Shown piece by piece: positions 2,163-63,727 of a stretch of DNA of 64,000 nt. The stretch is from Clostridia bacterium (GTDB lineage Bacteria > Bacillota > Clostridia > Lachnospirales > Anaerotignaceae). Location: contig JALCQR010000003.1 in the NCBI GenBank assembly GCA_022651385.1, positions 56,967 through 120,966 on the forward strand. Direction: 5' to 3'. The notes beneath the pieces are model-generated. The model was not told the origin of the DNA and searched no databases. It saw nothing but the letters and a program-made list of their open reading frames with translations. Every line of letters begins with the position of its first letter. Positions within the stretch are counted from its first letter, which is position 1. The position numbers and the translations under genes are program-made.

Positions 2163-3085
2163 CTAACATGTCCCCCTTCCATAAGAAGTTTAAGTACTGC
2201 CATTCTTACGGCAACTCCGTTTTTAACCTGTATATTTATAACTGAATTACAGCTATCCACTACTTCCGTACTAAGTTCAATCCCTCTGTTTACAGGCCCC
2301 GGATGCATTATAAGAACATCTTTTTTTGCATATTTTTTTATGATTTCTGCATTTAATCCAAAAAGCTGCCTGTATTCTTCAAGGCCCGGAAATGACATTG
2401 TTTTAAACCTTTCAAACTGTATCCTGAGCCCCATAATTACATCTGCGTTGCTTATTGCTTCCCTAATATCGCTTGTAGTGTGTATACCAAGCTTTCCGAG
2501 ACCTCCAAGCATAGTGGAAGGCCCTGCAAGAGTTACATCGGCACCCAGTTTTTTAAGACCGAAAACATTGCTCCTTGCAACACGGCTGTGAGAAATGTCT
2601 CCGATTATTGCAACCTTCAGTCCATCAAAGCTTTTTTTGTAATCCTTTATAGTATACAAATCCAGCAATGCCTGAGTCGGATGTTCGTTTGCGCCGTCTC
2701 CTGCGTTTATTACGTGTGCTTTTACATTTTTTGCAAGCACATGCGGTGCTCCGGCAAGACTGTTTCTCATTATCATTATGTCTACTCCCATTTGGTCAAT
2801 GGTCTTTCCGGTATCAATCAGACTTTCGCCTTTTTTCACACTGCTATTATTTATTCCGAGGTCCTGAACTGTAGCACCAAGATATTTTCCAGCAAGAGAA
2901 AATGAAGTTTTTGTCCTCGTGCTGTTTTCATAAAAAAGTGTAACTATGCTTGTATTTTTTAATTCTGGTATCCTTAACTCAGGATTATCTATCCTTTTTT
3001 TCATTTCAGACGCCATGTCAAGTATTGAAAGTATTTCTTCCCTGCTTACGTCTCTTAGACCAAGAACATCTTTACGATTTAACAT
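2159..3085 (-). CDS. pyrB: aspartate carbamoyltransferase catalytic subunit
   Basis: 308 aa with the ENSTRTKTSF, HPTQ and HPGPVNRG motifs. An AAAGGAA RBS precedes the ATG. Confidence 0.93.
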   Translation of the reverse strand: MLNRKDVLGLRDVSREEILSILDMASEMKKRIDNPELRIPELKNTSIVTLFYENSTRTKTSFSLAGKYLGATVQDLGINNSSVKKGESLIDTGKTIDQMGVDIMIMRNSLAGAPHVLAKNVKAHVINAGDGANEHPTQALLDLYTIKDYKKSFDGLKVAIIGDISHSRVARSNVFGLKKLGADVTLAGPSTMLGGLGKLGIHTTSDIREAISNADVIMGLRIQFERFKTMSFPGLEEYRQLFGLNAEIIKKYAKKDVLIMHPGPVNRGIELSTEVVDSCNSVINIQVKNGVAVRMAVLKLLMEGGHVR

Positions 3086-3109
3086 TTAACCATTCCTTTC
3101 AGAGCAATG

Positions 3110-3149
3110 CAAAAATAAAGGCAATAAAAAGTATTTACTTTTTATTGCC
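3110..3149 (-). terminator. intrinsic terminator/attenuator in the pyrB leader
   Basis: Minus strand reads GGCAAUAAAAAG-UAAAUAC-CUUUUUAUUGCC, a perfect 12-bp stem, followed by UUUAUUUUUG. It lies about 25 nt upstream of the pyrB RBS. Confidence 0.6.
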
Positions 3150-3276
3150 AAAAATGTGAAAAATAATTATTCTTAATTGAAGAAAAAATTGAATAAATTG
3201 AAAATCCGGCAGTGCCAAAAACACTGCTTGTGCAATTTAAAAATACGTCTTTGTAACTTGCCGCGCACGTTTTCAT
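3142..3276 (-). CDS. candidate 44-codon pyr leader peptide (MKTCAASYKDVFLNCTSSVFGTAGFSIYSIFSSIKNNYFSHFWQ)
   Basis: GGAGGGA RBS 9 nt upstream of the ATG. The last three codons (TGG CAA TAA) lie inside the 5' arm of the terminator hairpin. Below the size cut-off of the ORF track. Confidence 0.3.
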   Translation of the reverse strand: MKTCAASYKDVFLNCTSSVFGTAGFSIYSIFSSIKNNYFSHFWQ

Positions 3277-3397
3277 TTTCTTTTCCCTCCATAAATTTTG
3301 CATATTTATACTGTTCTATGCATACATTTTGATTATTCTATCATAAACATGCTTTTCCTGTCAATACATGAAATGATAATACCTTTATAAAAATTTC

Positions 3398-3425
3398 TTG
3401 ACCTTTATTGTATATGTATTATAAA
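3398..3425 (+). promoter_or_regulatory. sigma-A-like promoter for prfC
   Basis: TTGACC, 16-nt spacer, TATAAA, about 45 nt upstream of the prfC ATG. Confidence 0.4.
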
Positions 3426-3470
3426 ATGGAAATTAAATGTTTACACTAACAAAAATAGAAGGGATTAAAA

Positions 3471-5066
3471 ATGGTATCAAAAGAATTAATTGAGAACATA
3501 AATAAGAGGAGAATATTCGGCATAATATCACATCCTGATGCCGGAAAAACAACTCTTACAGAAAAACTGCTTCTTCATGGCGGAGCCATACATCAGGCAG
3601 GTACTGTAAAAGCCAGAAGAAATTCAAAATTTGCAACTTCCGATTGGATGGAAATAGAAAAACAGAGAGGCATTTCCGTTACTTCTTCAGTAATGCAGTT
3701 TGAATATGAAGGCAAAGTTGTTACAATAATGGATACGCCGGGACATAACGATTTCGGTGAAGACACGTACAGAATATTAACTTCAGTTGACAGTGCCGTA
3801 ATGGTAATAGATGCCGCAAAGGGTGTTGAGGCACAGACAAAAAAACTTTTTAAAGTATGCAGCATGAGAAAAATTCCTATATTTACATTTATTAATAAAC
3901 TTGACCGCCAGTCAAGAGACCCTCTTGAGCTTACAGAAGACATTGAAGAAGCGCTCGGCCTTCCTTCAACTCCTGTAACGTGGCCGATAGGAAACGGAAT
4001 TACATTTGAGGGAATTTATGATATTATAACAAACAAGGTTCATCTTTATCGCAAAAACACAACAATAGAGCTTGGCAAAAACGGAGTGTTCGGGCCTGAG
4101 CTTGAAAGCAAAATTGACCAAACAAATTTAAAGATATTAAGAGATGAGATAGAACTTGTTCAGGGTGCCGGCAATGAGTTTGACCTCGACCTTATACTAA
4201 AAGGAAAGCTTACGCCTGTGTTTTTCGGGACAGCCCTCGTGGATTTCGGAGTAACCGAATTTCTTGAACATTTTCTTCAGTATTCGCCTGCTCCCGGAGC
4301 CAGAAAAACAACAAAAGGAGAAGTGCTTCCAACAGATGAATTTTTCAGCGGCTTTATATTTAAAATTCAGGCAAATATGAATCCGGCACACCGTGACCGT
4401 CTTGCATTTTTGCGTATATGCTCTGGAACATTTGAAAAAGGCATGACGGTAACTCTTTCAAGAACGGGAAGACCTATGAAAATAAGTCAGTCCACAATGC
4501 TTATGGCAAATGAAAGAGAAAATGTGGACAGAGCAATGGCCGGAGACATTATAGGCATATATGATACTGGAAATTACCAGATAGGTGATACTCTTACCAC
4601 ATCAAAGGAAAAACTTTTTTTTGAACCGCTTCCGACTTTTCCTCCGGAGCTTTTCAGACGTGTGCGTCCTGTAAATTCACTTAAAGCTAAACAGTTTCAA
4701 AAAGGTGTGCATCAGCTTGCGCAGGAAGGCGCAATACAGGTTTACACAAATGAATATAATGAAACGGTTTTGGGTGCTGTAGGAGAACTTCAGTTTGAGG
4801 TGTTTGATTACAGGCTTAAAAATGAATACAACTGCGACATACGTATGGATAATCTTGAGTACAGCGTTGTAAGATGGGTTAAAAATGTACCTATTGAAAA
4901 ACTTCATGACCTTGAAACATCAAGAATTATGCTTGTGTTCGACCATTTTTCAAGACCGCTTTTGATATTTGCAAACCAGTACACACTTGATAATTTTGCT
5001 CAAAAACATGAAGATATGACACTTGTCGAAGCTCTTGATATGGAAAGCGAGCTTGAGGAAAAATGA
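3471..5066 (+). CDS. prfC: peptide chain release factor 3 (GTPase)
   Basis: 531 aa with HPDAGKTTLTEKLL (G1), DTPGH and NKLD motifs. Full-length RF3-like organisation. Confidence 0.93.
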   Translation: MVSKELIENINKRRIFGIISHPDAGKTTLTEKLLLHGGAIHQAGTVKARRNSKFATSDWMEIEKQRGISVTSSVMQFEYEGKVVTIMDTPGHNDFGEDTYRILTSVDSAVMVIDAAKGVEAQTKKLFKVCSMRKIPIFTFINKLDRQSRDPLELTEDIEEALGLPSTPVTWPIGNGITFEGIYDIITNKVHLYRKNTTIELGKNGVFGPELESKIDQTNLKILRDEIELVQGAGNEFDLDLILKGKLTPVFFGTALVDFGVTEFLEHFLQYSPAPGARKTTKGEVLPTDEFFSGFIFKIQANMNPAHRDRLAFLRICSGTFEKGMTVTLSRTGRPMKISQSTMLMANERENVDRAMAGDIIGIYDTGNYQIGDTLTTSKEKLFFEPLPTFPPELFRRVRPVNSLKAKQFQKGVHQLAQEGAIQVYTNEYNETVLGAVGELQFEVFDYRLKNEYNCDIRMDNLEYSVVRWVKNVPIEKLHDLETSRIMLVFDHFSRPLLIFANQYTLDNFAQKHEDMTLVEALDMESELEEK

Positions 5067-5491
5067 ATATATTAGTAAGTGCATGTCTTTTGGGCATCGG
5101 ATGCAGATATGACGGAAAAGCCAAAAGAAATGAAGCAGTATGCGCTCTTTCAGAAAAACATACTTTAATACCCATATGTCCGGAACAGCTGGGCGGAAGG
5201 CCAACACCCAGAAAACCGGTCGAAATAAAAAACGGCAAAGTAGTTGAATCCGACGGAACGGAACACACTGCCGAATTTAAAAAAGGTGCTGAGGAAACAC
5301 TTAAAATTGCCAAAATGTGCAACTGTTCCATTGCTATATTAAAAAGCCGCAGCCCTTCCTGTGGATTCGGCACGATTTATGACGGTACTTTTACAAAAAA
5401 TACAGTTGATGGAAACGGTATTACATCTGATTTTATTTCAAAACATGGTATCAAAATAAAAAATGAAGAAGATTTAGATAGTTTTTGCTGA
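5063..5491 (+). CDS. DUF523 family protein (TudS-like Cys-rich protein)
   Basis: 142 aa. N-terminal MNILVSACLLGIGCRYDG and a later SPSCG motif are typical of DUF523. ATGA overlap with prfC. Confidence 0.7.
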   Translation: MNILVSACLLGIGCRYDGKAKRNEAVCALSEKHTLIPICPEQLGGRPTPRKPVEIKNGKVVESDGTEHTAEFKKGAEETLKIAKMCNCSIAILKSRSPSCGFGTIYDGTFTKNTVDGNGITSDFISKHGIKIKNEEDLDSFC

Positions 5492-5632
5492 AACTAATCC
5501 GTATTTTCTGTGCGCAATTGAACAGCACGTCACTGTTTTATCTATTGAAAACTTTATAAAACAATGATATTATAAAAAATGTAAGTTTTCAGTTGTTTTA
5601 AGCTATAAAAAAGTAAAAAGGAATTGATAAAA

Positions 5633-6982
5633 ATGTCTATAAAAAAACAAAGCCACTTTTCTCCGGCAAAGAGTATAATGATGGGTTTCCTTTTGCTCAT
5701 TGCTGTAGGTACGGTTTTGCTTATGCTGCCGATTTCGTCAAATGATGGATGTATGACATCATTTTGGGACGCTTTGTTCACATCAACCTCTGCCGTATGT
5801 GTTACAGGTCTTGTTATTTTCGATACTTTTACACATTGGTCATATTTTGGTCAGCTTATAATTATATTGCTGATACAAATAGGTGGCATGGGAATAGTTA
5901 CAATGACAATAGGATTTGCGGTGTTTACAGGCAAAAAGATTGGCTTAAAACAGCGGTTTCTTATGCAGGAATCTATTTCAGCTCCTAAAATTGCAGGAAT
6001 TATTAAATTAACAGGCTTTATATTCCGTACCACATTTATGTTCGAAGCCATAGGCGCTTTTTTATTGTCTTTCAGATTTGTCCCTAAGTTCGGACTTGCA
6101 AAGGGAATATGGTTTGCAATATTTCATTCAATATCGGCGTTTTGCAATGCCGGTTTTGATTTAATGGGAGCAAATGAAAAATTTTCATCTCTTACCGCAT
6201 TTTCTGATGATCCTGTAGTATGTATAACCATAATGACACTTATAGTGGTAGGCGGCATTGGATTTTTTGTTTGGGATGATATAAAAAACAACGGACTGAA
6301 TTTAAAAAGATACCGACTGCACACAAAGGTAGCGCTGTTTACTTCTTTATTACTTATAATTATACCGGCTTTATATTTCTTTTTTTATGAGTTTAGTTTC
6401 AGTAACTGGCGTAATATGCCGCTTGGCGAAAGGCTGCTTTCATCATTTTTCCAATCGGTTACCACAAGAACAGCCGGTTTTAACACAATTGACCTTACAA
6501 TGCTAAAAAGTACGGGTGTGCTTATTATGATTTGCCTTATGCTTATAGGCGGCTCGCCTGGCTCAACAGCAGGCGGTTTTAAAACCACCACGTTTGCCCT
6601 GCTTATATTATGTATTCGTTCAACATTTAATAAAAGAGAACATGTTGCAGTATTTAAAAGAAGAGTGCCTCTTGAGACACTTATAAGTGTATGCTCATTA
6701 ATATCTCTTTACATAATATTGTTTTCAGTTGCGGGGATGATTATATGCAGCATAGACGGCGTATCACTAAAAGAATCACTTTTTGAAGCGGCATCTGCCA
6801 TAGGTACCGTAGGATTATCTCTCGGAATAACATCAGAACTTTCACTTGTTTCAAGAATAATTCTCATTTTGCTTATGTATTTCGGCAGAGTAGGAGGACT
6901 GACAATGATTTACGCCGTAAGCGGCAGCGTTGGCGGAGACCTTATATCGGCACTTCCTAAGGAAAAAATCTCTATTGGTTAA
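5633..6982 (+). CDS. ktrB: TrkH/KtrB-family potassium uptake membrane subunit
   Basis: About 450-aa polytopic membrane protein with repeated pore-loop-like GG/GFN segments (AGFNT, GGSPGSTAGG). Start trimmed to the ATG at 5633, behind an AAAGGA RBS; the ORF track started at an upstream TTG. Confidence 0.87.
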   Translation: MSIKKQSHFSPAKSIMMGFLLLIAVGTVLLMLPISSNDGCMTSFWDALFTSTSAVCVTGLVIFDTFTHWSYFGQLIIILLIQIGGMGIVTMTIGFAVFTGKKIGLKQRFLMQESISAPKIAGIIKLTGFIFRTTFMFEAIGAFLLSFRFVPKFGLAKGIWFAIFHSISAFCNAGFDLMGANEKFSSLTAFSDDPVVCITIMTLIVVGGIGFFVWDDIKNNGLNLKRYRLHTKVALFTSLLLIIIPALYFFFYEFSFSNWRNMPLGERLLSSFFQSVTTRTAGFNTIDLTMLKSTGVLIMICLMLIGGSPGSTAGGFKTTTFALLILCIRSTFNKREHVAVFKRRVPLETLISVCSLISLYIILFSVAGMIICSIDGVSLKESLFEAASAIGTVGLSLGITSELSLVSRIILILLMYFGRVGGLTMIYAVSGSVGGDLISALPKEKISIG

Positions 6983-9577: not shown

Positions 9578-10444
9578 TTATTCTTTTTTACAAATATTAA
9601 GAATATATTTGCCGTATGACGTCTTTTCCATACTTTCACCTATTTTTTTCAGACGCTCAAGCGTAATATATCCTTTTTTATATGCTTCGTATTCGATACA
9701 TGCAATATTTGTGTCATGGCTTTTTTGCGTCTTGCACACGATGTTAGATGCCTCAAGCAAACTGTCGGCTGTGCCGGCATCAAGCCAGATAAGATTTTCA
9801 AGGGCTATAACATTAAGTTTTCCCTTTTTTAGATATACATCGTTAACTCCAGTAATTTCAAGCTCTCCTCTTGCCGACGGTTTAAGGTTTTTTGCAATCT
9901 TTACAACCTCATTGTCGTAAAAATAAAGCCCGGGAACTATGTAATCGCTTTTTGGTTTTTCTGGTTTTTCTTCAATAGAGATAGCTTTTCCGTTTTTGTC
10001 AAACTCAACTACGCCAAATGGCCTTGGGTCCTCAACTTTTAAACCAAAAATCGCAGCACCTGAATTATTGCTGATTGCTTTTTCAATGGCATTTTTCATA
10101 CATCTGCCGTAAAAAATATTGTCTCCAAGTATAAGACAAACAGAATCATTTCCTATAAAACTCTCACCTATTATAAAGGCATCAGCAATACCTCTTTGTA
10201 CCTTTTGTTCTTTATATCTTATGTTAATTCCAATATTTCTTCCGTCGCCAAAAAGTTTTTCAAACTGTTCAAGGTCATCCGGCGGAACTATAATAAGCAC
10301 ATCTTTTATCCCTGCCTGAATAAGCACAGAAAGCGGATAATATATAAGCGGTTTATCATATACCGGTACAAGTGGCTTGCATACTGTTTTTGTTGCAGGA
10401 TAAAGACGCGTTCCTTTTCCTGCTGCTAAAATTATTCCTTTCAT
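9578..10444 (-). CDS. rmlA: glucose-1-phosphate thymidylyltransferase
   Basis: MKGIILAAGKGTRLYPAT nucleotidyltransferase signature, about 288 aa, ending YGKYL. Start trimmed to the second Met. Confidence 0.87.
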   Translation of the reverse strand: MKGIILAAGKGTRLYPATKTVCKPLVPVYDKPLIYYPLSVLIQAGIKDVLIIVPPDDLEQFEKLFGDGRNIGINIRYKEQKVQRGIADAFIIGESFIGNDSVCLILGDNIFYGRCMKNAIEKAISNNSGAAIFGLKVEDPRPFGVVEFDKNGKAISIEEKPEKPKSDYIVPGLYFYDNEVVKIAKNLKPSARGELEITGVNDVYLKKGKLNVIALENLIWLDAGTADSLLEASNIVCKTQKSHDTNIACIEYEAYKKGYITLERLKKIGESMEKTSYGKYILNICKKE

Positions 10445-13360: not shown

Positions 13361-13389
13361 ATTATATTACATCATTTTTCATATTGCAA
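13361..13389 (-). promoter_or_regulatory. sigma-A-like promoter upstream of the thiW leader hairpin
   Basis: Minus strand reads TTGCAA, 17-nt spacer, TATAAT. Confidence 0.4.
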
Positions 13390-13399
13390 GCATTTTTTA

Positions 13400-14287
13400 T
13401 TAAACTGAAATATTTTTCCACTTTTCCTCATCTTTTGTAATCTTAAAATCAGCTTTCCAGTTGTCAACTTTCTGTTCAAAAAGACTATTTTCAGTTTGCG
13501 TTTTATAGTCATCACGCATCTTTTCAGTAATAACATTTTCGTCAGGCTTTGAAACAGACTTAACGCTGTATACAGCATATCCTTTGTCATCTTTTGTGAT
13601 TCCGCATGCATGTTCACTTATGTCATCAGAATTAAATTCCTGCTTAAAATCGGTTTTGTTCATACTTGTTTCATCTGTATTTGTTATACCTAACTGCGAC
13701 ACCGCTGTTTCAAAATCAGTTCCGTTTTTCAACTGCAAAACAAAATTATCAGCTTCATTTTTTTCAGCAAAATAAGCCTCATTTACTTTAATCTCTGTTT
13801 CTTCGTCTGTATATTTTTCTCTGTTTAAATCACAAAAATTTTTATAGTCGCTTTCACTTATCATGTAATCAGATAAAACAGCGGATTTTACTTTTTCATA
13901 AATTTGTTTTTCAAGCATTACTTCTTTTACAATTGTATCATGTTTTCCATTATCAGTGACATAATCCTTAGCATCTTCTTCAGCTTTTTTTCTCATTTCA
14001 TCACTGACTTTTACATCGTATTGGTCAGCTTTTGAACATACAATTTTAACAGCCACAAGAGAGTTTAAAGCGCTGTCTTTAGCCACTTCTTCAGCCGACT
14101 TTCCGTTAAAATCGGTTTCCCAAATATCATTTCCTCCAACTTTTTCAAAGGTTTTAATCGTTTCGTCGAGATAAATTTTATATTCTTCTTCGCTTGCCGA
14201 ATATGAGCCGATTCTTATAAAAGCGCCGCTGTTGCTGCACCCGCTTAAAACTAATGCAAATAATAAAACTGTTAAAATCTTTTTCAT
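13400..14287 (-). CDS. PrsA/SurA-like foldase lipoprotein (parvulin domain looks degenerate)
   Basis: MKKILTVLLFALVLSGCS lipobox. SurA_N-like helical region. Sits immediately downstream of mfd, as in many Clostridia. Confidence 0.65.
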   Translation of the reverse strand: MKKILTVLLFALVLSGCSNSGAFIRIGSYSASEEEYKIYLDETIKTFEKVGGNDIWETDFNGKSAEEVAKDSALNSLVAVKIVCSKADQYDVKVSDEMRKKAEEDAKDYVTDNGKHDTIVKEVMLEKQIYEKVKSAVLSDYMISESDYKNFCDLNREKYTDEETEIKVNEAYFAEKNEADNFVLQLKNGTDFETAVSQLGITNTDETSMNKTDFKQEFNSDDISEHACGITKDDKGYAVYSVKSVSKPDENVITEKMRDDYKTQTENSLFEQKVDNWKADFKITKDEEKWKNISV

Positions 14288-14301
14288 GATATCACCACTT
14301 T

Positions 14302-17300
14302 TCACTCAATGGCTCCAAGAAATTCCGTAATATATTCAAAAACATCCTTTTTAGCTTTATCGTTTATTTTTATAGTTACATACGGATTCGTAGCCGATGT
14401 AAACATATAAGACAGAGGATTTTTCATTACAACACTTGTTATCTTTGTTGGATCAAGTTTTGTCTGGCCCTTGAATGTAACAACGATTGATTTTTGTTTT
14501 TGTGATACCGACATAATATCAAGTTTATGCGCCCTTGATTTAAGAAGCGCGATTCTTAAAAGCATTTCGACACTTTTCGGCATTGTTCCGTATCTGTCGG
14601 TTATTTCGTCGTATATGTCGTTATAATCATCTTGATTTAAAATATCGGCAATCTTTTTATATATCAACAATTTTTGTTCCTCATTGGCAATATAGCTTGA
14701 AGGTATATAGGCATTTACGTTTATGTCTATGAGAGTCTCAAAGTCTTCTTTTACGTCAACCCCCTTAAGCCTGCTTACAGCTTCGTCAAGCAGACGGCAG
14801 TACATCTCATATCCAACTGAAGCCATATGCCCATGCTGCTGGGCCCCAAGTATATTCCCTGCCCCTCTTATTTCGAGGTCTCTCATTGCTATTTTAAATC
14901 CTGAACCGAATTCTGTAAACTCCCTAATTGTCTGAAGTCTCTTTTCCGAAACTTCATTTAACACTTTGTCACGTTTATACATTAAATAAGCGTATGCAAC
15001 CTTGTTTGTCCTGCCTACACGTCCTCTAAGCTGATAAAGCTGCGAAAGCCCCATTTTGTCAGCATCCTGAATAATCATTGTATTTACGTTGCCTATATCA
15101 AGTCCGGTCTCAATTATTGTTGTGCAGACCAAGACGTCAATTTCGCCCTCAATAAAATCTTTCATTATTATTTCAAGCTCTCGTTCCGACATCTGCCCGT
15201 GAGCGTAGGCCACATTTGCGTCTGGCACAAGATGCTGAATTTTTATTGTTTCTTGCTCAATGCTTTCAACCCTGTTATAAAGATAATATACCTGTCCGTT
15301 TCTGGCAAGCTCACGGTTTATGGCATCTCTTATGAGTTCTGTATCGTTTTCCATTACATATGTCTGTACCGGCTGTCTTTCATGCGGCGGCTCCTCAAGA
15401 AGACTCATGTCCCTTATTCCCGAAAGGCTCATATGAAGCGTTCTCGGTATAGGTGTTGCCGTAAGCGTCAGGACATCTATATTTTCCTTGAGGCTTTTAA
15501 GCTTTTCTTTATGCGCAACTCCAAACCTCTGTTCCTCGTCAATTATTACAAGTCCCGGATTACTGAATTTCACATCTTTTGAAAGTATTCTGTGTGTTCC
15601 AATAACTATATCCGAAAGCCCGCTTTCAAGACGCTTTATTGTCTCCGCCTGTTCTTTTTTGCTTTTAAAACGTGATAATAGCTCTATTTTTATGGGGTAC
15701 TCCTTCATCCTTGAAACAAAAGTATTATAGTGCTGCTGGGCAAGTATTGTCGTAGGTACAAGAAACACGACCTGTTTTGAGTCCTGTACGGCTTTAAACG
15801 CCGCTCTTATGGCAACTTCAGTCTTTCCGTAGCCGACATCACCGCATATAAGTCTGTCCATAACACGTCCGGTTTCCATGTCATGCTTTACTTCCTCAAT
15901 GGCGTTAAGCTGGTCCTCCGTTTCCTCATACGGAAACATCTCTTCAAATTCTCTCTGCCATACATTATCCGGAGAATAAACAAAGCCCTTGGCAGCTTGT
16001 CTTTTAGCGTAAAGCTTTATAAGGTCTTCTGCAAGTATCTCTACCGCTTTTCTTACTTTGTTTTTAGCATTTGTCCATTCCTTTGAGCCGAGTTTATTAA
16101 CTTTTACGCCGTTTCCGTTTCCGCCTATATATTTTTGTATGCAGTCCATTTGTCCCGCAGGCACAAAAAGATTGCCGCCGTCTGCATAGCTTATCTTTAC
16201 ATAATCTTTATTGACGCCGTCAACAACTATTTTTTCTATGCCTCTGTAAACACCTATTCCATGAGCCGAATGTACAACGTAATCCCCAATTTTCAAATCG
16301 GCAAAACTGTCTATTGTAACAGAATTTTTCTTTTTTCGTTTTGGGTGTTTCTGTTTTCGCTTGGCAAGAAAACTGCTGTCTGAAAAAACAGCTAAATCTC
16401 CGTCCGAATATAAAAATCCTTTGCTTAAATTGCCTCTCGAAACCGTAACCGTGCCTTTTTTTAGAGCCGCCTCAGTATAATCCGCCACATATGCGCTTTC
16501 CACTCCGTGCTGCTCAAGTTCTTTTACAAGCCTTTCCCCTCTGCTTTGAGAGGATGAAACAATAAGTATACGATAGCCTTTATTTTTCAGTTCTTTTACT
16601 TCTTCGCTGAACAGTTCAAAACGATTGTTGTAGCTTTCCGTTGTCCTTACTTTAAAAGAAATCATATCCTTTATGTCAAAGTCGGAAGCCGAAACGGCAA
16701 TTGTATTCATTATTACGCAGTTCTTTTTTTCGGCAAAACGCACCATTTCCGCATAAGTGTATATTATGTTTGCCATGTCGGGAAGCATATATCCTTTTTC
16801 AATACGGCTTTTTATGCTCTCGGACAGCTCCTTTGAGATATTCTCGCTTTTTTGCTTTATTCTTGAAAGTTCATTGAAATAAATAACGGCATTTTCTTTG
16901 GCATATCCAAAAATATTTACCGTTTTATCATAAAAATAATTAATAAATCCTGCCACCGCGGAGTCATGCTTATTAATTTCAAGATTTTCCAAAGACTCCC
17001 CAACATGATGCTCAAGCATCTGCGCTTCACTTTCAAGCCCCTTTTTTACAAATGTTGAATGTGATTTTTTATATGCTTTTTCTATGTTTTTTATAGCTTT
17101 ATCAAGACATTTTTCATCATAGAAAAATTCATTAAACGGATATATTTCGGTTTTTTTAATTCTGTCAACCGACCTCTGAGTCGATACGTCCATATCTCTT
17201 ATAGAATCAACTTCATCGTCCCAAAGCTCTATTCTTACAGCATTCTCATTTACAGAAGGATATATGTCTATTATTCCGCCTCTTATCGAAAATTGGCCTT

Positions 17301-33645: not shown

Positions 33646-35970
33646 CTACTGTATCATTTGTTTAACTTTGGCACCGTTATAATAATATTTTATAATGTCT
33701 TCCATCTTAAATCCATCGTCGCTCATTCCTTTTACACCATTTTGGCTCATTCCGCAACCATGCCCTATTCCGCCGCCTACAAGTACGAAATTTTTATTGT
33801 TTGCATCTTGCCAAGTTTCTATAGCAAAAAAGGCACTCGGCAAAATACTGTAATTTTTAAGCACAGTGCCGTCTTTCAAATTAAGATTTACAGTGTCTCC
33901 GCCGTATCCCTTAGGTCTTAAAAGGCAGCGTATATTGTACTCTGTGTAAACAGTAATATCTTTGTTGTCAAATATAAGTTTAAGAGCCATAACATTTCCG
34001 CCATGTCCTCTTTTTGTAATTTCCATGTCTTTCAAATGCCCTGCAGATGACAAAAAATCTGAGCATTTTTCAGGGAGATTATAATTACCGTTAATTGTCC
34101 TGTTTTTGTCGTAAATTCCAGGAAGATTGTTTTTAACTGTGTTTTCAAGCTGAGAGAGGCTAAAAGTTACATTCCATCTAAACCATTTCGACCATGAATC
34201 ATAACTTTTGGTATTTGTGTCCTCAAAATAAGAAAGTGCTGCATTTTCCGACGTAAAATCCACATTATCATCATTTCTGTAAGAAAGGTATGGTTTCGTA
34301 TCCGATGGGAAAGTGCCGTTTTTTGCCCATACCTCACATGACGATGCTCCTGTTCCGCATGAAGAAGCATAGAAATTTGCGCTTACTACTTCATCATTAT
34401 AACAAATGCACGTTCCTTTTGTTACGTCGGCAGCTTCGTCTGATGTCTCGTTTTCCAAAGAGCTGTTATAAACCTGACACATAACCGTATCGTCGCAGTT
34501 TGCACCATAATTTAAATATTCGTTTGAATAAAACTCGTTATATCCGTAGCTTCTGGCACACACAGCCTGCACTTTAGCAGCTTCACTGCCGTAGCCCGAG
34601 GGCATTTCGCTTGGTATTACACCTTTAACATAATCCTCAAAGTTTACTTCATTTATTACAAGATAGCCGTTGTCTGTTTTTTCAATATCAAATTCACCGT
34701 AAAAGTCCTTTGAGGCTCTGTTTCTGTCATCACAATCCAATGTGATTTTGCCGGATACCGGAACTAATGTCACGCGCCCCGAAGAACATATATCGCTGTC
34801 AGACATATCAAGTTTATTTACTGTGTTAACCTTCGTCCCCGCTTTATATATGTCAATTCCGGAAGTATCTGTAAAAATCACATTGTCGTGAAAATATCCG
34901 TTGTCACTGCTTATTATTACACGCATTTTTTCCGGCTGATATTTTTCAGATATTAAAGCCGCCGATATTTTTCCGTTTTTTAAATAAAAATCATAATTGC
35001 AGCCTGAAATCAATTCTGAAATCGAAGCTGTCTTTGCTCCGTTATATGTACTTACGGCATTAAAGCATTCGTCTTTATTAATATTTCCTTTGTTTTCAAA
35101 CTCGAATTTGCTTCCATCAAAAGAAATTATCCGGTCTGTTATTTTTTCAGATACAGGCTGCATATTTTGAATTTCTCCGCTGTCAACAGTAATATCATAA
35201 AACCCAGTTTCAGAATACGACGGATTTTCAAACTGCCGAGTACCATAATTTAATAAAAACTCGCAGTTATTTTCTCCGTTATTACACATATACACATTCT
35301 GAAAATCGGCAGTATCGCATTTTACATTATTTATTGCCGCAATCTCACCGTTTTTTATAAATACTTCTATTGTCTTGTCAATACAAAAGTCTATATTTAT
35401 TCCGCTGTGGTCAAGAACACCGATGCTTGTAGCCGTTTTATAGGCATCCATACCGCCTGTTTCAGCCGTTGCAAAAATACTTATATCTTTTCTTTCTATT
35501 CCATGCTGTTTAAGGTCTATTCCTCCAAAAAGCATGTCAAGCCAAAGCCTCAATGATATAGCTTCGTCACTGTTTTTTATGTTCTTCCCTGTTTTAATGC
35601 CAACATGTTTGCATATTTCCTGAGCCTGTCCATAGCTAAGCGGTTCATCAGGATTAAAATTTTGGCCGTCACCACTCATTATTTTGTCACGGCATACGGC
35701 ATTTACATATTTGTCGTACCAGTTTCCCCTTCCAATGTCATCAAGGCCGCAGTATGCAGCATTTTCAATATCGTCAGAAAAAACCACAGCAAGCATTTTT
35801 GCCGCAGTAGCACGAGTTACACACAAATTAAAATAACTGTTATCACTGCTTTCATTTGCGCTTTGTGCACCCTTGTCATTATTTTCTATAATGATATTTT
35901 TGTTTTCACCGCTTTGACATCCGCATAAAATAAACACTAAACATAAAAAAATAAGGTATATCCTTTTCAT
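33646..35970 (-). CDS. SpoIID/LytB-domain lipoprotein with a long N-terminal extension
   Basis: 774 aa. Lipobox LCGC, SLH-like N-terminal segment, SpoIID signature (AAKVQAVCARSYGY ... GHGCGMSQNG). Confidence 0.8.
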   Translation of the reverse strand: MKRIYLIFLCLVFILCGCQSGENKNIIIENNDKGAQSANESSDNSYFNLCVTRATAAKMLAVVFSDDIENAAYCGLDDIGRGNWYDKYVNAVCRDKIMSGDGQNFNPDEPLSYGQAQEICKHVGIKTGKNIKNSDEAISLRLWLDMLFGGIDLKQHGIERKDISIFATAETGGMDAYKTATSIGVLDHSGINIDFCIDKTIEVFIKNGEIAAINNVKCDTADFQNVYMCNNGENNCEFLLNYGTRQFENPSYSETGFYDITVDSGEIQNMQPVSEKITDRIISFDGSKFEFENKGNINKDECFNAVSTYNGAKTASISELISGCNYDFYLKNGKISAALISEKYQPEKMRVIISSDNGYFHDNVIFTDTSGIDIYKAGTKVNTVNKLDMSDSDICSSGRVTLVPVSGKITLDCDDRNRASKDFYGEFDIEKTDNGYLVINEVNFEDYVKGVIPSEMPSGYGSEAAKVQAVCARSYGYNEFYSNEYLNYGANCDDTVMCQVYNSSLENETSDEAADVTKGTCICYNDEVVSANFYASSCGTGASSCEVWAKNGTFPSDTKPYLSYRNDDNVDFTSENAALSYFEDTNTKSYDSWSKWFRWNVTFSLSQLENTVKNNLPGIYDKNRTINGNYNLPEKCSDFLSSAGHLKDMEITKRGHGGNVMALKLIFDNKDITVYTEYNIRCLLRPKGYGGDTVNLNLKDGTVLKNYSILPSAFFAIETWQDANNKNFVLVGGGIGHGCGMSQNGVKGMSDDGFKMEDIIKYYYNGAKVKQMIQ

Positions 35971-36201
35971 ATATATCCCTCCTAATATATATAATATGGA
36001 TACATTTGTAAATTATTTTCGAATAAATATGTATCCTTTTACAAATTCAGCATAACTGTAAATCCCTTGAAATATATGATATATTTATATGTTGTTAGTC
36101 CTTGTTTTATTATTTGCAATATTCATTACAAACTGCAAAATTGATATTAAAAATATAAATTGCGTACAAAATGCAGACAATTTTTGATTAAAAATACTAA
36201 T

Positions 36202-36231
36202 AAAAGGACTATTCATTTGAATAGTCCTTTT
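36202..36231 (-). terminator. bidirectional hairpin terminator ending the ATPase-HEPN cassette
   Basis: AAAAGGACTATTC-ATTT-GAATAGTCCTTTT, a 13-bp perfect stem, flanked by T/A runs. Confidence 0.65.
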
Positions 36232-36414
36232 ATAATTTTTTAGTAATCACAATACTTACTGTTTTAAATCATAATTTTTCGGCTGCTTTTGTAACATATG
36301 CAACACAAAATTTAACGGTCAGTGTGTGCCACTCGAAAGAATGATTATTTTAATTTAAAATATATGTAAAAGTGCTCTAATATTTTTCAAAATTGTATTA
36401 AGGGCAACTTAATA

Positions 36415-37137
36415 TTAATTTTGTTGTCCTGCCTTAATTAGCGTTACTTTATTAATTGCATTAACTATTTTTTCAAAATCTTTCACAAAGTCTTTTACTA
36501 AGTCTTTTGAAATTTCATTTCTCTTTGCATTAGCATGCTCTCTGTCTGATTGATGTGCAATTAAATTACGTCTATGATACAACTCATTAATTCTACGTTT
36601 TAATTTATCCATAGTTTTTTCATTTGCGCCTTGTACATAAAATGCTTCATTAGCAATCTCCATAATATTTATTCCTATAAGATTCATTTGAGCTTTGAAT
36701 GATTCAAAAGATGTCATAGTAACACCAGAATACATACCATTAATGAATTCTAAAAACCATTTTGAATCTTTTCCTGAACTTAAAGCCCCCTCGACAATAC
36801 TCATTTTCACTTCAATATTATTGTATTTATCTGTTTCTTTCCATCCAGGTGTTCCTTCAAATATTCCATATAGCCCAAATTTAGTGAGCTCATGCAAATA
36901 AAAATCGAAAGCGCTTTCTAAAAATACAACTTGTGAACGCCATATATCTTCTGCATTTTGTCGTTTATCCTCTAGAATTAGTTCTTGCGCAATATTAAAT
37001 TGATCTTTTATTGCTTTTATATTATCATCAAAATGTTGTTTAATTTCATCCAATTTAAACTTAACAACCTCGGATTTACTATTTTCTCTTGTATCTTCTG
37101 CTCTCCGATTCAGATCTAAATTTCTCTCATCGTTCAT
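36415..37137 (-). CDS. HEPN-like protein (Rx4H motif), partner of the upstream ATPase
   Basis: 240 aa, predicted all-helical by eye. C-proximal ELYHRRNLIAHQSDRE contains the R-x4-H HEPN signature. AGGTGA RBS. Starts 19 nt after the ATPase stop. Confidence 0.6.
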   Translation of the reverse strand: MNDERNLDLNRRAEDTRENSKSEVVKFKLDEIKQHFDDNIKAIKDQFNIAQELILEDKRQNAEDIWRSQVVFLESAFDFYLHELTKFGLYGIFEGTPGWKETDKYNNIEVKMSIVEGALSSGKDSKWFLEFINGMYSGVTMTSFESFKAQMNLIGINIMEIANEAFYVQGANEKTMDKLKRRINELYHRRNLIAHQSDREHANAKRNEISKDLVKDFVKDFEKIVNAINKVTLIKAGQQN

Positions 37138-37156
37138 ATGATTGTATTCACCTGAT

Positions 37157-38437
37157 TCAATTTATATCATTTATATCATTATTTAGCATGGGAATAGCAC
37201 CATATTTGCCAGATATATATTCCCTTTCTAAATTTTCTGTTTTTCTAACATTCTTAATTTCCACCAGAGAATATAAATTGGTCGAGCGTTCTTTATCTAA
37301 TTGGGTAAACCACACTTGGTCTCTTCTAAAGAGTTTTGAATCTAATAGATTTGTATCATGAGTAGAAAAAATTAATTGCGCAAACTGTTCCTGTCTAATA
37401 GTTTTAAATAATCGTATAATCTCATATACAATCGACTCATGAAGCCCTGTTTCAAATTCATCACATATTAATATTTTCCCATTATTTAATATATCAATAA
37501 TAGGACATATAATCTCAAATAATTTTTTTATTCCAGTTGATTCTTCTGTCATTAAATCTGTCTCAAATTGATCATATATAACTTTTGCTTCTATTTGATT
37601 TGTCTCCGGTGAAGATAAAATTATATTTTTAAGAATTTCTGGCATATCTTGTGGCAAATCCAGACTATTAGTTTTTACTTTTTGAATTTTTACTTTTATA
37701 TCTGAAATCCCAGTATCTAATTGTTTCATAATCTTAACAAATACACTTTTAACTTTTGGGTCATTTTGCATTAAGTTTATGGAATATTCTGTCCAAGTAT
37801 TATTATTAGGTCTGTAAACAATTATATCATTTTTAAAAAATAAAAAAGCATTTTCAATCTCTTTAATATTAGTAAAATTAGCTGCACATGTTAAAAACAA
37901 ACGATTTTCTTTTAATATACCTTTTAATACTCCTTCACTTATTTCAAATATCTTTTTAAATTTATCGCCAGGGTATATTTCCATTACGTCACGTTCAAAT
38001 ATTTTAACCTGCTTTCCATTAGGAAAATAGTATAAATATTCGTTATTTATTAAGTTCTTTATAATTGAAAAACCATATGCGTATCTAATATTATCTTTTA
38101 CAAATTGAATGCTATACTCACTTGGTGTATTAATATCATTCAATTTATGTGGCTTTTGTTTAATTACTTCCCCAGGTTGAAAAGTCATGCTTCTTGTAAC
38201 TAACGTTTTCATAAAGTCTATAGCACTTAAAAAATTACTTTTTCCAGACCCATTTGCGCCATAAATAACTGCATTTCTTAAAATTCTATAATTTCCAAAT
38301 TTTTTCAATTCATTTTCAAATGTATTATCCTTTCCAGCAATAGCAGAGAAAGTCACTTTATTTTTTATAGATTTATAATTTGAACATGAAAATTCCAGTA
38401 TCACATTTAGCACCATCCTTTTATCTTCTTTTTTCAT
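37157..38437 (-). CDS. ABC/SMC-like AAA ATPase (AAA_15/AAA_21-type)
   Basis: Walker A GANGSGKSN, Walker B ILICDEFETGLH, H-loop FSTHD. Start trimmed to MKKEDKR, 4 nt after GAGGAGGAG. Confidence 0.8.
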   Translation of the reverse strand: MKKEDKRMVLNVILEFSCSNYKSIKNKVTFSAIAGKDNTFENELKKFGNYRILRNAVIYGANGSGKSNFLSAIDFMKTLVTRSMTFQPGEVIKQKPHKLNDINTPSEYSIQFVKDNIRYAYGFSIIKNLINNEYLYYFPNGKQVKIFERDVMEIYPGDKFKKIFEISEGVLKGILKENRLFLTCAANFTNIKEIENAFLFFKNDIIVYRPNNNTWTEYSINLMQNDPKVKSVFVKIMKQLDTGISDIKVKIQKVKTNSLDLPQDMPEILKNIILSSPETNQIEAKVIYDQFETDLMTEESTGIKKLFEIICPIIDILNNGKILICDEFETGLHESIVYEIIRLFKTIRQEQFAQLIFSTHDTNLLDSKLFRRDQVWFTQLDKERSTNLYSLVEIKNVRKTENLEREYISGKYGAIPMLNNDINDIN

Positions 38438-38625
38438 GCTACTCCTCCTCAATTGTTTTGTCAAACAAATTTGCACTGTTTTTGCATTTTTCGCATTAAA
38501 ATCACTAATTTATGATGTCTTACCATACATTTTATACATATTTAAGTCTATTTAAACAACAAGTTACCATTATTTAGTTACCCATTTTGCAATCTATCAA
38601 TGTCTAATGCATTTTTTATTTAATC

Positions 38626-39453
38626 TTAGCTTGTTTCTATCTTATTAAATAACCTCATAAGAAATAACATGAGCTGTTCCCTTGTTACAAAGTTTTTATA
38701 CTGTTTATTTCCGTTTTCGTCTCCGGCAATAATGTTGTTACTTTCGGCCCATGTTCTGGCCTCTTTTGACCAGTCGGCCGGTTCTTCGGTCTTTAAACTT
38801 GATAAATATGTATTCATCATTTCATTAAATTGCGCTTGTGTCATCATATCGTCGTCATCCTCTTTTTCTTCAAAATCCTTGTAACAGACATCTAAATCAA
38901 AATTCCCGCTGCACCCGGATATGCTTCCGGAGTCTGTATATTGCCACATTGTGTGCTTTATTTCGTCATTGTTTCCCCATTGTGCGTTCCAAAAATATAG
39001 GGCGATAGATTTATCAATAACTTTCGTTAAAACGCTTTTGCTTGCATATATGCCGCATTTTAAACCCTGCGACTGTATGTAATTAATGAATGTACTACAT
39101 ATGCTGTTAATAAGTGCCTTATCGTTGTACAGATTTATGCCGTGCTTATTTTTGTAACCGTCTGCGTCCTCCATATCAAACAATATAGGCATGTCAAGCT
39201 GTTTGTCTTTAATAAGGCCATAAACATATTTAGCTTCTTTCAATGCGTCGTTTGCGCATAAAGCATAGCTGTAATGATAAACGCCGACTTTAAGCCCTGC
39301 TGCTTTTGCCCTTTTGTAATTTTCTTCAAATTTTATGTCCGTAGTGTCGGTACCGTATGAGCTTCTTATAATAACAAAGGAAAGGCCTGCCGCCTTAGCG
39401 GCGGCAAAGTCTACGGTACCATTATGTTTACTTATATCAAAACCTTTAAGCAT
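38626..39453 (-). CDS. endolysin: GH25 muramidase with a C-terminal SLH-like wall-binding segment
   Basis: N-terminal MLKGFDISKHNGTVDF...FVIIRSSYG...GVYHYSYA motifs. The C-terminal WSKEARTWAESNNIIAGDENGN...VTREQLMLFLMRL resembles one SLH repeat. Confidence 0.87.
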   Translation of the reverse strand: MLKGFDISKHNGTVDFAAAKAAGLSFVIIRSSYGTDTTDIKFEENYKRAKAAGLKVGVYHYSYALCANDALKEAKYVYGLIKDKQLDMPILFDMEDADGYKNKHGINLYNDKALINSICSTFINYIQSQGLKCGIYASKSVLTKVIDKSIALYFWNAQWGNNDEIKHTMWQYTDSGSISGCSGNFDLDVCYKDFEEKEDDDDMMTQAQFNEMMNTYLSSLKTEEPADWSKEARTWAESNNIIAGDENGNKQYKNFVTREQLMLFLMRLFNKIETS

Positions 39454-62872: not shown

Positions 62873-63727
62873 CTACATTTCCTCACGCACTTTTTTTTCA
62901 ATTGCCGCATAATCATACTGCCTTTGGGAATAGCTGTTAAAACTGTTTTTCTTAGCTTTTTGTTCAGCTGTACCGGATAAACCCGCAGATTTTGAATAAT
63001 TCCCCTCAAGGATTTTTATTGCGTTTGCCGGTTTTAATATCCAGTCAAAATCAGCCCTCCACCCTCGGTCATTGCTGCCGGTCAAAAAAGCACTTTGCTG
63101 TGCAGTATCCAAAAGTGTTTTCAGGTCCTCTTTGCTGTGTTTTTTCAAAAAGCTCCTTAAAGCCGTTTTGCGTCTTTCCGTTATTTCGCGCACAGCAGGA
63201 AAAGCAGTGCACTGAGTATTAAAATACTGCCGTATACGCTCATAATCCATTTTCGGCCTCTCGCTTTTGGGCGTATCATCGTCGGTTTCCGGCGGTAATT
63301 CCTTTGTATTCCTTATATCGTTTTGTTTAGTTTTGTTTTGTTTACTAATGGTATCATTTGCAGTATCACTTGCAGTATTGTTTGCAGTATCATCTGTAGT
63401 ATCATTTGTAGTATCATTTGCAGTATCATCTGTAGTATGAAAATCACACTGCAGCAGTGAATTTATGTGATATATGGCCGCTTGGTTTCCCCGCTTTTGA
63501 AAATCTATGAGCCCTTTGTCCTTCAGCATATTCCTTGCTCTTAAAACAGCCTGCTTGTTCAGGCCGGTTTTGACTTCGAGCACCACAACAGCTACCGTAA
63601 AGTTATCCTGCCACTTCGATTTATTCGCTATGTGCATTAATGCATGCCACAGGGCAATTCCCGACGTAGGTAGTTGGTTCACTTCGAGCCAGTCATAAAA
63701 TGCTTTAATCTCCAGCAAGTAATTCAT
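62873..63727 (-). CDS. phage replication initiation/organiser protein (winged-helix N-terminus, DnaD-like)
   Basis: 284 aa. N-terminal wHTH-like region (GLNKQAVLRARNMLKDKGLIDF), a central T/D/N repeat linker, and a C-terminal ...RGWRADFDWILKPANAIKILEGNY motif seen in Firmicutes phage replication proteins. Confidence 0.62.
   Translation of the reverse strand: MNYLLEIKAFYDWLEVNQLPTSGIALWHALMHIANKSKWQDNFTVAVVVLEVKTGLNKQAVLRARNMLKDKGLIDFQKRGNQAAIYHINSLLQCDFHTTDDTANDTTNDTTDDTANNTASDTANDTISKQNKTKQNDIRNTKELPPETDDDTPKSERPKMDYERIRQYFNTQCTAFPAVREITERRKTALRSFLKKHSKEDLKTLLDTAQQSAFLTGSNDRGWRADFDWILKPANAIKILEGNYSKSAGLSGTAEQKAKKNSFNSYSQRQYDYAAIEKKVREEM
63349..63440. repeat. 7-8 tandem copies of a 12-bp unit (c/tagtatcatt/ctg), iteron-like, inside the replication gene
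   Basis: Read directly: tggtatcatttg cagtatcacttg cagtattgtttg cagtatcatctg tagtatcatttg tagtatcatttg cagtatcatctg tagtatga. In frame, encoding (T/A)(N/D)DT repeats. Confidence 0.85.

Follow-up and report, generated by a model that had tools for sequence, protein, structure and literature searches.

Pairs of an ABC-type ATPase and a nuclease, such as AbiL, PARIS, Septu, Gabija and OLD, are among the commonest immune modules of bacteria, yet a detailed picture of how these ATPases sense infection and license their effectors exists for just a few systems with Toprim or HNH effectors. AbiL and PARIS are proven abortive-infection defences with Toprim effectors (PMC13064643, PMC11464382). The second protein of AbiL, AbiLii, is an RloB/Toprim nuclease (PMC13064643; PMC10440598), and in PARIS the ATPase AriA forms a scaffold that keeps the Toprim nuclease AriB inactive until a phage protein triggers its release, whereupon AriB cleaves tRNA (PMC11464382). 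In the published tree of AAA15/21 defence ATPases the partners are Toprim, DUF4435, RloB, DUF4276, UvrD, DUF262, DUF3996, HNH and reverse transcriptase (RT); HEPN is not listed. The subject of this analysis is a two-gene cassette in which an ATPase of this kind is followed by a HEPN protein, both genes lying on the minus strand of a 64,000-nucleotide (nt) stretch of DNA from a gut Clostridia bacterium (GCA_022651385.1, contig JALCQR010000003.1), referred to as the window.

Nucleases of the HEPN type are known from other architectures. PrrC, RloC, RemN and HepS are HEPN anticodon nucleases (PMC12409363; PMC13043305). RemN is part of RemAIN of the Salmonella prophage Gifsy-1, in which it is combined with the ATPase RemA and the immunity protein RemI, and which is an experimentally validated defence (PMC13043305); the statement in the original prediction that HEPN-ATPase pairs had been noted only computationally therefore has to be withdrawn. 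In NetFlax, toxicity assays showed that nuclease toxins are neutralised by ATPases of AAA_15/21-like type (node D29); a HEPN partner of the ATPase hub (node M61) is recorded computationally only (PMC10440598). Further HEPN proteins are found in PD-T4-2, PD-T4-5 and PD-T7-3, which are listed as carriers of PF18735.

From the data that follow, the cassette was judged to be probably (at about 0.65) an AbiL/PARIS-like abortive-infection system in which the Toprim effector has been swapped for a HEPN effector, and which travels as horizontally mobile two-gene prophage cargo. In broader terms, the module is very probably a defence of the abortive-infection or toxin-antitoxin type.

The HEPN protein and the ATPase

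The downstream gene (36415..37137, minus strand) was defined by translation of its open reading frame (ORF), encodes 240 amino acids (aa) and starts 19 nt past the stop codon of the ATPase gene. The assignment of its product to the HEPN proteins, originally made from a single motif, was upheld by the following data. The protein matched Pfam family PF18735 (HEPN_RiboL-PSP) with 32.1 bits and an E value of 1.3e-7, above the curated gathering threshold of 28.4, the match on the protein itself being confined to its C-terminal third. The same family was matched by 39 of the 40 relatives (best 8.2e-14). When the family profile was aligned by hhalign to a full-length PF18735 member, a protein of Pseudomonas Pf phage WX-TY that matches PF18735 end to end at 6.8e-14, a probability of 98.4% and an E value of 5e-15 were obtained over residues 38-228. 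Because of the matches among the relatives and the reach of this profile alignment, it was concluded that the assignment extends to the whole globular part of the protein. PHROG 13503 also matched (1.5e-20).

The catalytic motif was located in the alignment of the 40 relatives as R190-N-L-I-A-H195-Q-S-D-R199 (36541..36570, minus strand), an Rx4H motif, and the string HRRNLIAHQSD corresponds to residues 188-198 of the translation. These relatives share 36-57% identity with the window protein; their invariant residues include R190, N191, I193, A194, H195, Q196 and R199 (RNxIAHQxxR), and also Q69, L73 and D78 in the long N-terminal helix. As a sequence pattern, the invariant RNxIAHQxxR is that of catalytically active HEPN RNase families, and the protein is predicted to be a metal-independent RNase effector, i.e., the toxin of the pair. 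The AlphaFold2 model is all-helical, with nine helices (mean predicted local distance difference test score [pLDDT] of 86.5, predicted template-modelling score of 0.82), in agreement with the all-helical character that had been judged by eye. A fold search of this model against BFVD returned as its top match an annotated MAE_28990-like HEPN protein, with a probability of 1.0, an E value of 0.087 and template-modelling scores of 0.51/0.57. The N-terminal tail, residues 1-28 (37054..37137, minus strand), combines low pLDDT with conserved residues: residues 1-20 have pLDDT values of 52-54 and are predicted to be disordered, while L9, R12, E14, R17 and F27 are near-invariant. We conjecture that this tail is a candidate docking peptide for the ATPase.

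The searches for other effector types were negative. AbiLii and RloB models found no match in the HEPN protein or in its 40 relatives, and the Pfam and PADLOC searches gave no match of the protein to DUF4435, AriB or HNH. PADLOC produced just two weak matches to it (PDC-S02 and Cas8b) and none to PrrC or RloC, and sequence and profile searches of the PDB with the HEPN protein found nothing. The HEPN protein might instead be conceived as a non-catalytic adaptor that binds RNA or nucleotides, the effector being the ATPase or an unlinked protein. Some HEPN families are indeed inactive binders (Anantharaman et al. 2013, PMC3710099), and no solved HEPN structure was matched significantly. An adaptor role was nevertheless considered most improbable, as the R, N and H of RNxxxH together with the Q and R are invariant down to 36% identity, as in active HEPN families, and as the Pfam search found neither a nuclease nor any other effector domain in the ATPase.

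The upstream gene (37157..38437, minus strand) encodes the ATPase of 426 aa, and its ATG start codon is found behind a GAGGAGG ribosome-binding site. The ATG lies seven bases 3' of GAGGAGG; the longest ORF reaches a GTG at 38476. The protein matched Pfam AAA_21 at 4.5e-24 and is an ABC ATPase of the AAA_21/AAA_15 type, as had been proposed from its motifs, and PHROG 5836 matched at 1e-65. In the translation and an alignment of 36 homologues, the Walker A motif or P-loop GANGSGKSN comprises residues 60-68 (38234..38260, minus strand), of which G60 and N62-N68 are invariant. The ABC signature-like S-T-G at residues 300-302 (37532..37540, minus strand) lies within LMTEESTGIKK, with E298, E299, S300 and G302 invariant, and the signature was read as E-S-T-G, residues 299-302. 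The Walker B motif and D-loop, ILICDEFETGLH, comprise residues 322-333 (37439..37474, minus strand; D326, E327, E329 and H333 invariant), and the H-loop FSTHD comprises residues 357-361 (37355..37369, minus strand; F357, T359, H360 and D361 invariant). The most variable segment, at about residues 211-285 (37583..37807, minus strand), follows the Walker A lobe and precedes the signature motif. Among the HEPN-linked ATPases the column entropy reached a peak of 2.1-2.4 bits in this segment, compared with 0.7-1.2 bits at the catalytic motifs and across the 60 C-terminal residues. This segment is, by conjecture from the alignment, a candidate insert specific for the trigger or the partner, and the ATPase as a whole is predicted to be the sensor or regulator that keeps the nuclease in check.

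The family of the ATPase was deduced from a comparison with control proteins. The window ATPase was matched by the PADLOC model AbiLi (PDLC02335) at 1.3e-85. Three control ATPases, 28-37% identical to it and taken from a Clostridium beijerinckii plasmid, a P2-like Klebsiella phage and the Lactococcus prophage proPhi7, were scored by the AbiLi model at 4e-76 to 1e-101, and each is followed by a gene of the RloB family that PADLOC scores as AbiLii (RloB 1e-25 to 1e-44; AbiLii 1e-18 to 1e-29). Five more ATPase-RloB loci were found, two on plasmid records that are annotated as RloB, and one unannotated plasmid and two fecal-phage records in which RloB was recognised by local profile. Since the AbiLi model also scores these RloB-linked ATPases, the window ATPase was assigned to the AbiLi/RloA family. 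The AriA model PDLC02980 matched the window ATPase at 2.9e-25, over the generic AAA_21 domain only, and the AbiLi match is better by 60 orders of magnitude. PrrC and RloC were absent from the 25 best of the 41 PADLOC matches of the ATPase, and PtuA models were not among its top PADLOC matches. Sequence and profile searches of the PDB with the ATPase gave matches confined to the P-loop and signature fragments of SMC/ABC proteins. In a large protein database no identical or near-identical ATPase was present (best identity, 69%), while the neighbouring HEPN protein had a 100% match (P0001); the same 426-aa gene was called on the contig of P0001, and the missing ATPase match is probably an indexing gap rather than biology.

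Pairing and comparison with described systems

The two genes were found to be tightly linked. The ATPase gene lies directly upstream and on the same strand in 79 of 80 loci from species-representative genomes, the exception having just 46 bp of upstream sequence at a contig end, and in all 14 viral contigs from IMG/VR; it is likewise directly upstream in six of six independently annotated contexts. Across the loci, HEPN proteins and ATPases diverge from the window pair in step, their identities to it being correlated (r = 0.88). When 95 ATPases were placed in a neighbour-joining tree, 29 of 30 bootstrap replicates put the 85 HEPN-linked ones in one clade apart from those linked to RloB. This monophyly points to one replacement of the effector, after which the two genes diversified together. 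The search for a conserved third gene or a small immunity ORF came back empty; no flanking ORF family occurred in more than 11 of 86 loci, from which it follows that there is no conserved third component, and the small ORFs located 3' of the pair are unrelated to each other. ATPase and HEPN protein form an obligate, co-evolving and strictly two-gene module.

A whole-library profile search with the HEPN family yielded 898 representative clusters when the cut-off was E <= 1e-3; at E <= 1e-30 the number was 165. The best 150 representatives are mostly full-length proteins of about 215-250 aa, with many shorter fragments, and none exceeds 389 aa, so that there is no sign of a fusion to the ATPase. 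The 80 genomic loci come mostly from Lachnospiraceae and other Clostridia, the further hosts being Spirochaetales/Treponema, Ruminobacter/Succinivibrionaceae, Absicoccus, Selenomonas and one Thermotogota genome. The HEPN-ATPase family is found for the most part in gut Lachnospiraceae and reaches the Spirochaetota, Succinivibrionaceae, Erysipelotrichales, Negativicutes and Thermotogota. A tblastn search of plasmids with the HEPN protein gave no match.

Among the described systems, AbiL of Lactococcus lactis (AbiLi plus AbiLii) and the RloA/RloB-type pairs resemble the module in the family of the ATPase, in the two-gene operon that begins with the ATPase gene and has a junction that is short or overlapping, and in being carried on both plasmids and prophages. 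The difference resides in the second gene, which encodes a RiboL-PSP HEPN protein in the window and RloB/Toprim in AbiL, and in the HEPN-linked ATPases forming their own clade. Since the defining RloB partner is absent, the module is not a member of AbiL. A canonical AbiLi and RloB (AbiLii) pair was observed in the Lactococcus phage proPhi7 (locus L185, positions 2504-4316; MN534320) in the slot past the lysin, the same kind of place as that occupied by the cassette. A further AbiLi-like ATPase, 30% identical, is present on many 4.8-kb ColE1-type plasmids of Klebsiella and Enterobacter (locus L186, positions 1048-2820; NZ_CP072412), where it is followed by a protein of 122-145 aa without a Pfam match. 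This partner is neither RloB nor HEPN and may represent another effector swap, here on very small plasmids.

PARIS likewise pairs an ABC ATPase of the AAA_15/21 type with a nuclease encoded by a gene of its own, and is frequently carried by phages. It acts by cleaving tRNA and aborting the infection, and its sequestration and trigger-dependent release of the nuclease serve as the mechanistic template for the window module (PMC11464382). However, the ATPases match at the domain level only, and AriB is a DUF4435 Toprim protein, whereas the effector in the window is HEPN. The chemistry differs accordingly, HEPN being metal-independent and Toprim metal-dependent. The module is not PARIS because it has no DUF4435, and not Septu because it has no HNH.

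PrrC and RloC, too, unite an ABC ATPase and a HEPN RNase and defend via tRNA cleavage, but with both domains fused in one polypeptide, whereas the window family has separate genes, 19 nt apart in the window itself. In the original prediction the pair had been described as a split PrrC/RloC-type module. The description of an ATPase with a free-standing HEPN protein stands; descent from PrrC/RloC does not, and a split PrrC as lineage was rejected, since the ATPase has its affinity with AbiLi/RloA, the HEPN protein belongs to RiboL-PSP, no PrrC or RloC profile matched it and no fusion was seen. The affinity of the ATPase to AbiLi implies convergence or domain shuffling in place of a split PrrC, and PrrC and RloC serve as a functional analogy only.

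RemAIN resembles the module in being prophage-encoded and in having an ATPase and a free-standing HEPN nuclease. Were the window pair a member of that family, it would be an already known system, and the HEPN nuclease of RemAIN, separate from its ATPase, does cleave tRNA (PMC13043305). We regard such membership as improbable. RemAIN has three genes including the immunity protein, whereas the window module has two and no conserved third gene stands beside the pair in 86 loci; the two are thus set apart by gene count and not by sequence comparison. In addition, when 50,697 phage records were searched by tblastn with the two window proteins, there was no Salmonella or lambdoid match, for the ATPase even at E = 0.1, with the remAIN-bearing Gifsy-1 perhaps lying outside that collection. 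No remAIN-like genes were present in the LT2 Gifsy-1 record.

In NetFlax, node D29 offers a likeness in that an AAA_15/21-like ATPase acts as the neutraliser of swappable nuclease toxins; the assayed pairs differ in having had RelE-like (AarT) or Toprim toxins. The stand-alone HEPN defences HepS, Tha, ApeA, AbiD/F, PD-T4-2, PD-T4-5 and PD-T7-3 share the HEPN Rx4-6H RNase effector, are in many cases prophage-borne and act by abortive infection. They differ in lacking an ATPase partner, and the weak superfamily-level PADLOC matches of the window protein include none to their models. PD-T4-4 was considered as an ATPase-HEPN system and discarded: its effector is given as HNH in one preprint and as PD-(D/E)xK in a review table, and a HEPN partner is named in neither. 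None of the systems named in PADLOC covers the ATPase-HEPN combination, in keeping with the earlier failure to recognise one.

Genomic contexts, the lysis-end slot and locus layout

The cassette in the window adjoins the lysin at the lysis end of a prophage, and its relatives occupy diverse places. In another prophage the pair lies on the cI-repressor side beside an IS66 fragment. Other copies were found within an islet with an integrase and ParE/Phd, adjoining a SocA/Panacea gene, adjoining a type I restriction-modification operon that has an embedded TIR gene and a serine recombinase, and at a plain chromosomal LuxS locus. In other phages the pair lies between integrase and amidase lysin, directly 5' of the large terminase gene (TerL), or between baseplate genes. 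The module behaves as mobile defence-type cargo.

These contexts bear on whether the pair could be an addiction or toxin-antitoxin module by which the prophage or island is stably maintained, with the HEPN protein as toxin and the ATPase as antitoxin and with no dedicated sensing of phages. Such a role would fit the NetFlax data, in which this ATPase type is a hub antitoxin that neutralises nuclease toxins (PMC10440598), and the occurrence of the module on integrative elements beside ParE/Phd and SocA/Panacea. It was judged unlikely, however, because AbiL and PARIS, which have the same architecture with Toprim effectors, are proven abortive-infection defences (PMC13064643, PMC11464382), because some copies, e.g., that at the LuxS locus, are in ordinary chromosomal contexts with no element to stabilise, and because an ATPase of 426 aa with a hypervariable insert would be an elaborate antitoxin. 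Addiction and defence are also not mutually exclusive roles.

The slot past the lysin was compared with that of two phage contigs (L101 and L102) whose lysins are 77-80% identical to that of the window. Their similarity to the window ends at about 38615-38675, at the lysin stop, and unrelated genes lie beyond. The contents of the slot therefore vary, and the cassette does not belong to the core functions of the phage, which agrees with its original description as variable cargo. A role in the prophage's own lytic cycle rather than in immunity, for example in shutting off host RNA or as a replication or packaging ATPase, is favoured by the position of the pair directly past the lysis genes and on the same strand, where late-operon read-through is possible. 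This explanation was nonetheless considered highly improbable: in close relatives of the phage the pair is missing and the slot is filled by different genes; of the 80 genomic copies the majority lie outside prophages, as do several of the annotated contexts; and the cassette is preceded by a spacer of its own and has a GC 13 points under that of the phage.

The composition of the locus was computed. The GC of the ATPase gene is 0.262 and that at third codon positions (GC3) is 0.18, the corresponding values for the HEPN gene being 0.296 and 0.19. The whole cassette has a GC of 0.27 versus 0.40 for the phage. The phage part at 38626-60000 has 0.403 and the host side 0.366, and the lysin gene has a GC of 0.378 and a GC3 of 0.40. 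The AT richness of both genes, which had been estimated by eye, is thus borne out.

Upstream of the cassette there is an AT-rich spacer of 188 bp (38438..38625, minus strand) that contains a weak sigma-70-like site and, shortly ahead of the ATG, the GAGGAGG. On the evidence of its sequence, this spacer is likely to be the cassette's own promoter region. On the other side, 182 bp 3' of the HEPN stop codon, a bidirectional terminator-like hairpin was identified (36200..36233) with a 15-bp stem containing four G-C pairs, a 4-nt loop and T-runs on both strands; two terminator-like sites were observed in the hairpin region versus 0.6 expected. A 43-aa ORF across the hairpin (36085-36216) is not conserved elsewhere. 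The spacer (38625) and the hairpin (36200) are the likely limits of the transcription unit. The two genes with their motifs, the 19-nt gap, a spacer of about 190 bp and a hairpin had all been predicted, and each was found in its place, with the spacer refined to 188 bp and the stem to 15 bp. The neighbours are a GH25 lysin gene (38626-39453) and a gene for an SLH/SpoIID protein (33646-35970). An Rfam scan of 35500-39000 matched no RNA family.

Several of the comparison loci have features of their own. The early region of the prophage with the pair on the cI-repressor side contains a gene for a complete S-adenosylmethionine synthetase (L007-L011, positions 13366-14547). In the restriction-modification locus (L018, positions 1-5691; GCA_965348805.1), a TIR gene of CAP12/PCTIR type stands between hsdR and hsdS, and the ATPase-HEPN pair is immediately alongside. 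On a myovirus-like contig (L203, positions 3717-5699; IMG/VR 3300010266_000046; also L204 and L205), the pair is between a gpD-like baseplate hub gene and Baseplate_J, an odd place for cargo. The post-lysin genes of L101 (7374-10435) encode membrane proteins and an unknown protein of 437 aa, and a reverse-transcriptase-like ORF begins there as well (9959-10435); in L102 (7002-9255) an unknown protein of 483 aa comes first and small multi-pass membrane proteins come next. The cargo of both contigs looks like further defence or toxin candidates.

Proposed mechanism and additional observations

The mechanism is proposed by analogy with PARIS (AriA/AriB), the NetFlax ATPase/nuclease pairs, PrrC, RloC, RemAIN and HepS. 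HEPN RNases generally require dimerisation to form a composite active site. In the uninfected lysogen, an oligomer of the ATPase would bind the HEPN protein and keep it monomeric or occluded, with the disordered N-terminal tail as a possible docking element. Upon infection, a product or activity of the incoming phage would be sensed by the ATPase, perhaps via the variable insert 211-285, and ATP binding or hydrolysis would then free or rearrange the HEPN protein. The resulting HEPN dimer would assemble the composite Rx4H active site and cleave RNA, the likeliest targets being tRNA anticodon loops or mRNA. Translation would halt and the infection would abort, by which the lysogen population and the prophage would be protected. 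The tail of the HEPN protein and the variable segment of the ATPase are compatible with a sequestration mechanism of this kind and prove nothing.

The points that weigh against an AbiL/PARIS-like system with a swapped effector are as follows. Foldseek of the HEPN model against the PDB gave no significant match, the best HEPN entry being 2hsb at rank 12 with E = 2.3; the fold assignment is consequently drawn from the sequence profiles and the modest BFVD match. The AlphaFold2 model of the ATPase, with a pLDDT of 47.9, was of too low a quality to be compared with other structures; the probable reason is that all 36 homologues in the alignment are 63-69% identical. Sequestration, the docking tail and the sensor insert are conjecture. 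The sigma-70-like site in the spacer, TTTAAA-16-TAAAAT at 38556..38529, is weak and is a consensus match only (9 of 12 positions). The boundary of the prophage was also not located, so that the cassette could be a host islet abutting it: a direct-repeat search of 35900-64000 for att sites returned chance-level pairs only, the window contains no tRNA genes, and a look-up of the SpoIID protein for an empty site gave only contigs with the cassette. Finally, the mechanism could instead resemble that of PrrC, with nucleotide sensing, or be that of a plain toxin-antitoxin pair.

Beyond the assignment to an AbiL/PARIS-like type, it is possible, and is proposed tentatively, that the module is the first example of a distinct defence family of about 900 representative clusters, in which an AbiLi-type ATPase captured a RiboL-PSP HEPN RNase in the place of Toprim and in which both the phage trigger and the RNA target are new. 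If so, one sensor ATPase scaffold would license two chemically unrelated nucleases, one possibility being a docking tail combined with ATP-driven release and dimerisation. A natural swap of Toprim for HEPN within one ATPase family offers a way to separate the generic licensing machinery from the effector-specific parts of the ATPase. For gut Firmicutes, in which phage defences have been little tested, the module adds a candidate defence that targets RNA. Its novelty is moderate, as effector swapping on an ATPase scaffold is an established theme and as fused and three-gene ATPase-HEPN systems are already known. Current annotation tools would give an orphan AbiLi match only and overlook the system; a rule that combines an AbiLi-clade ATPase with PF18735 would recover the pair.

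A different ATPase-HEPN arrangement was observed in Pf-type filamentous prophages, namely Pseudomonas phage WX-TY (L019, positions 2676-4308; PV296014) and a Pf1-like prophage (L020, positions 2950-4420; AY324828). In these, a ParA/Soj-like AAA_31 ATPase is followed by an overlapping gene for a RiboL-PSP HEPN protein (PF18735, 6.8e-14), the HEPN-like ORF being unannotated in AY324828. This AAA_31-HEPN pair may be a second, independent ATPase-HEPN module in the Pf accessory region. Within the window, a 12-nt tandem repeat (GTATCATTTGCA-like) with at least six register-shifted copies was observed at 63351-63446, inside a minus-strand prophage ORF (62873-63727).

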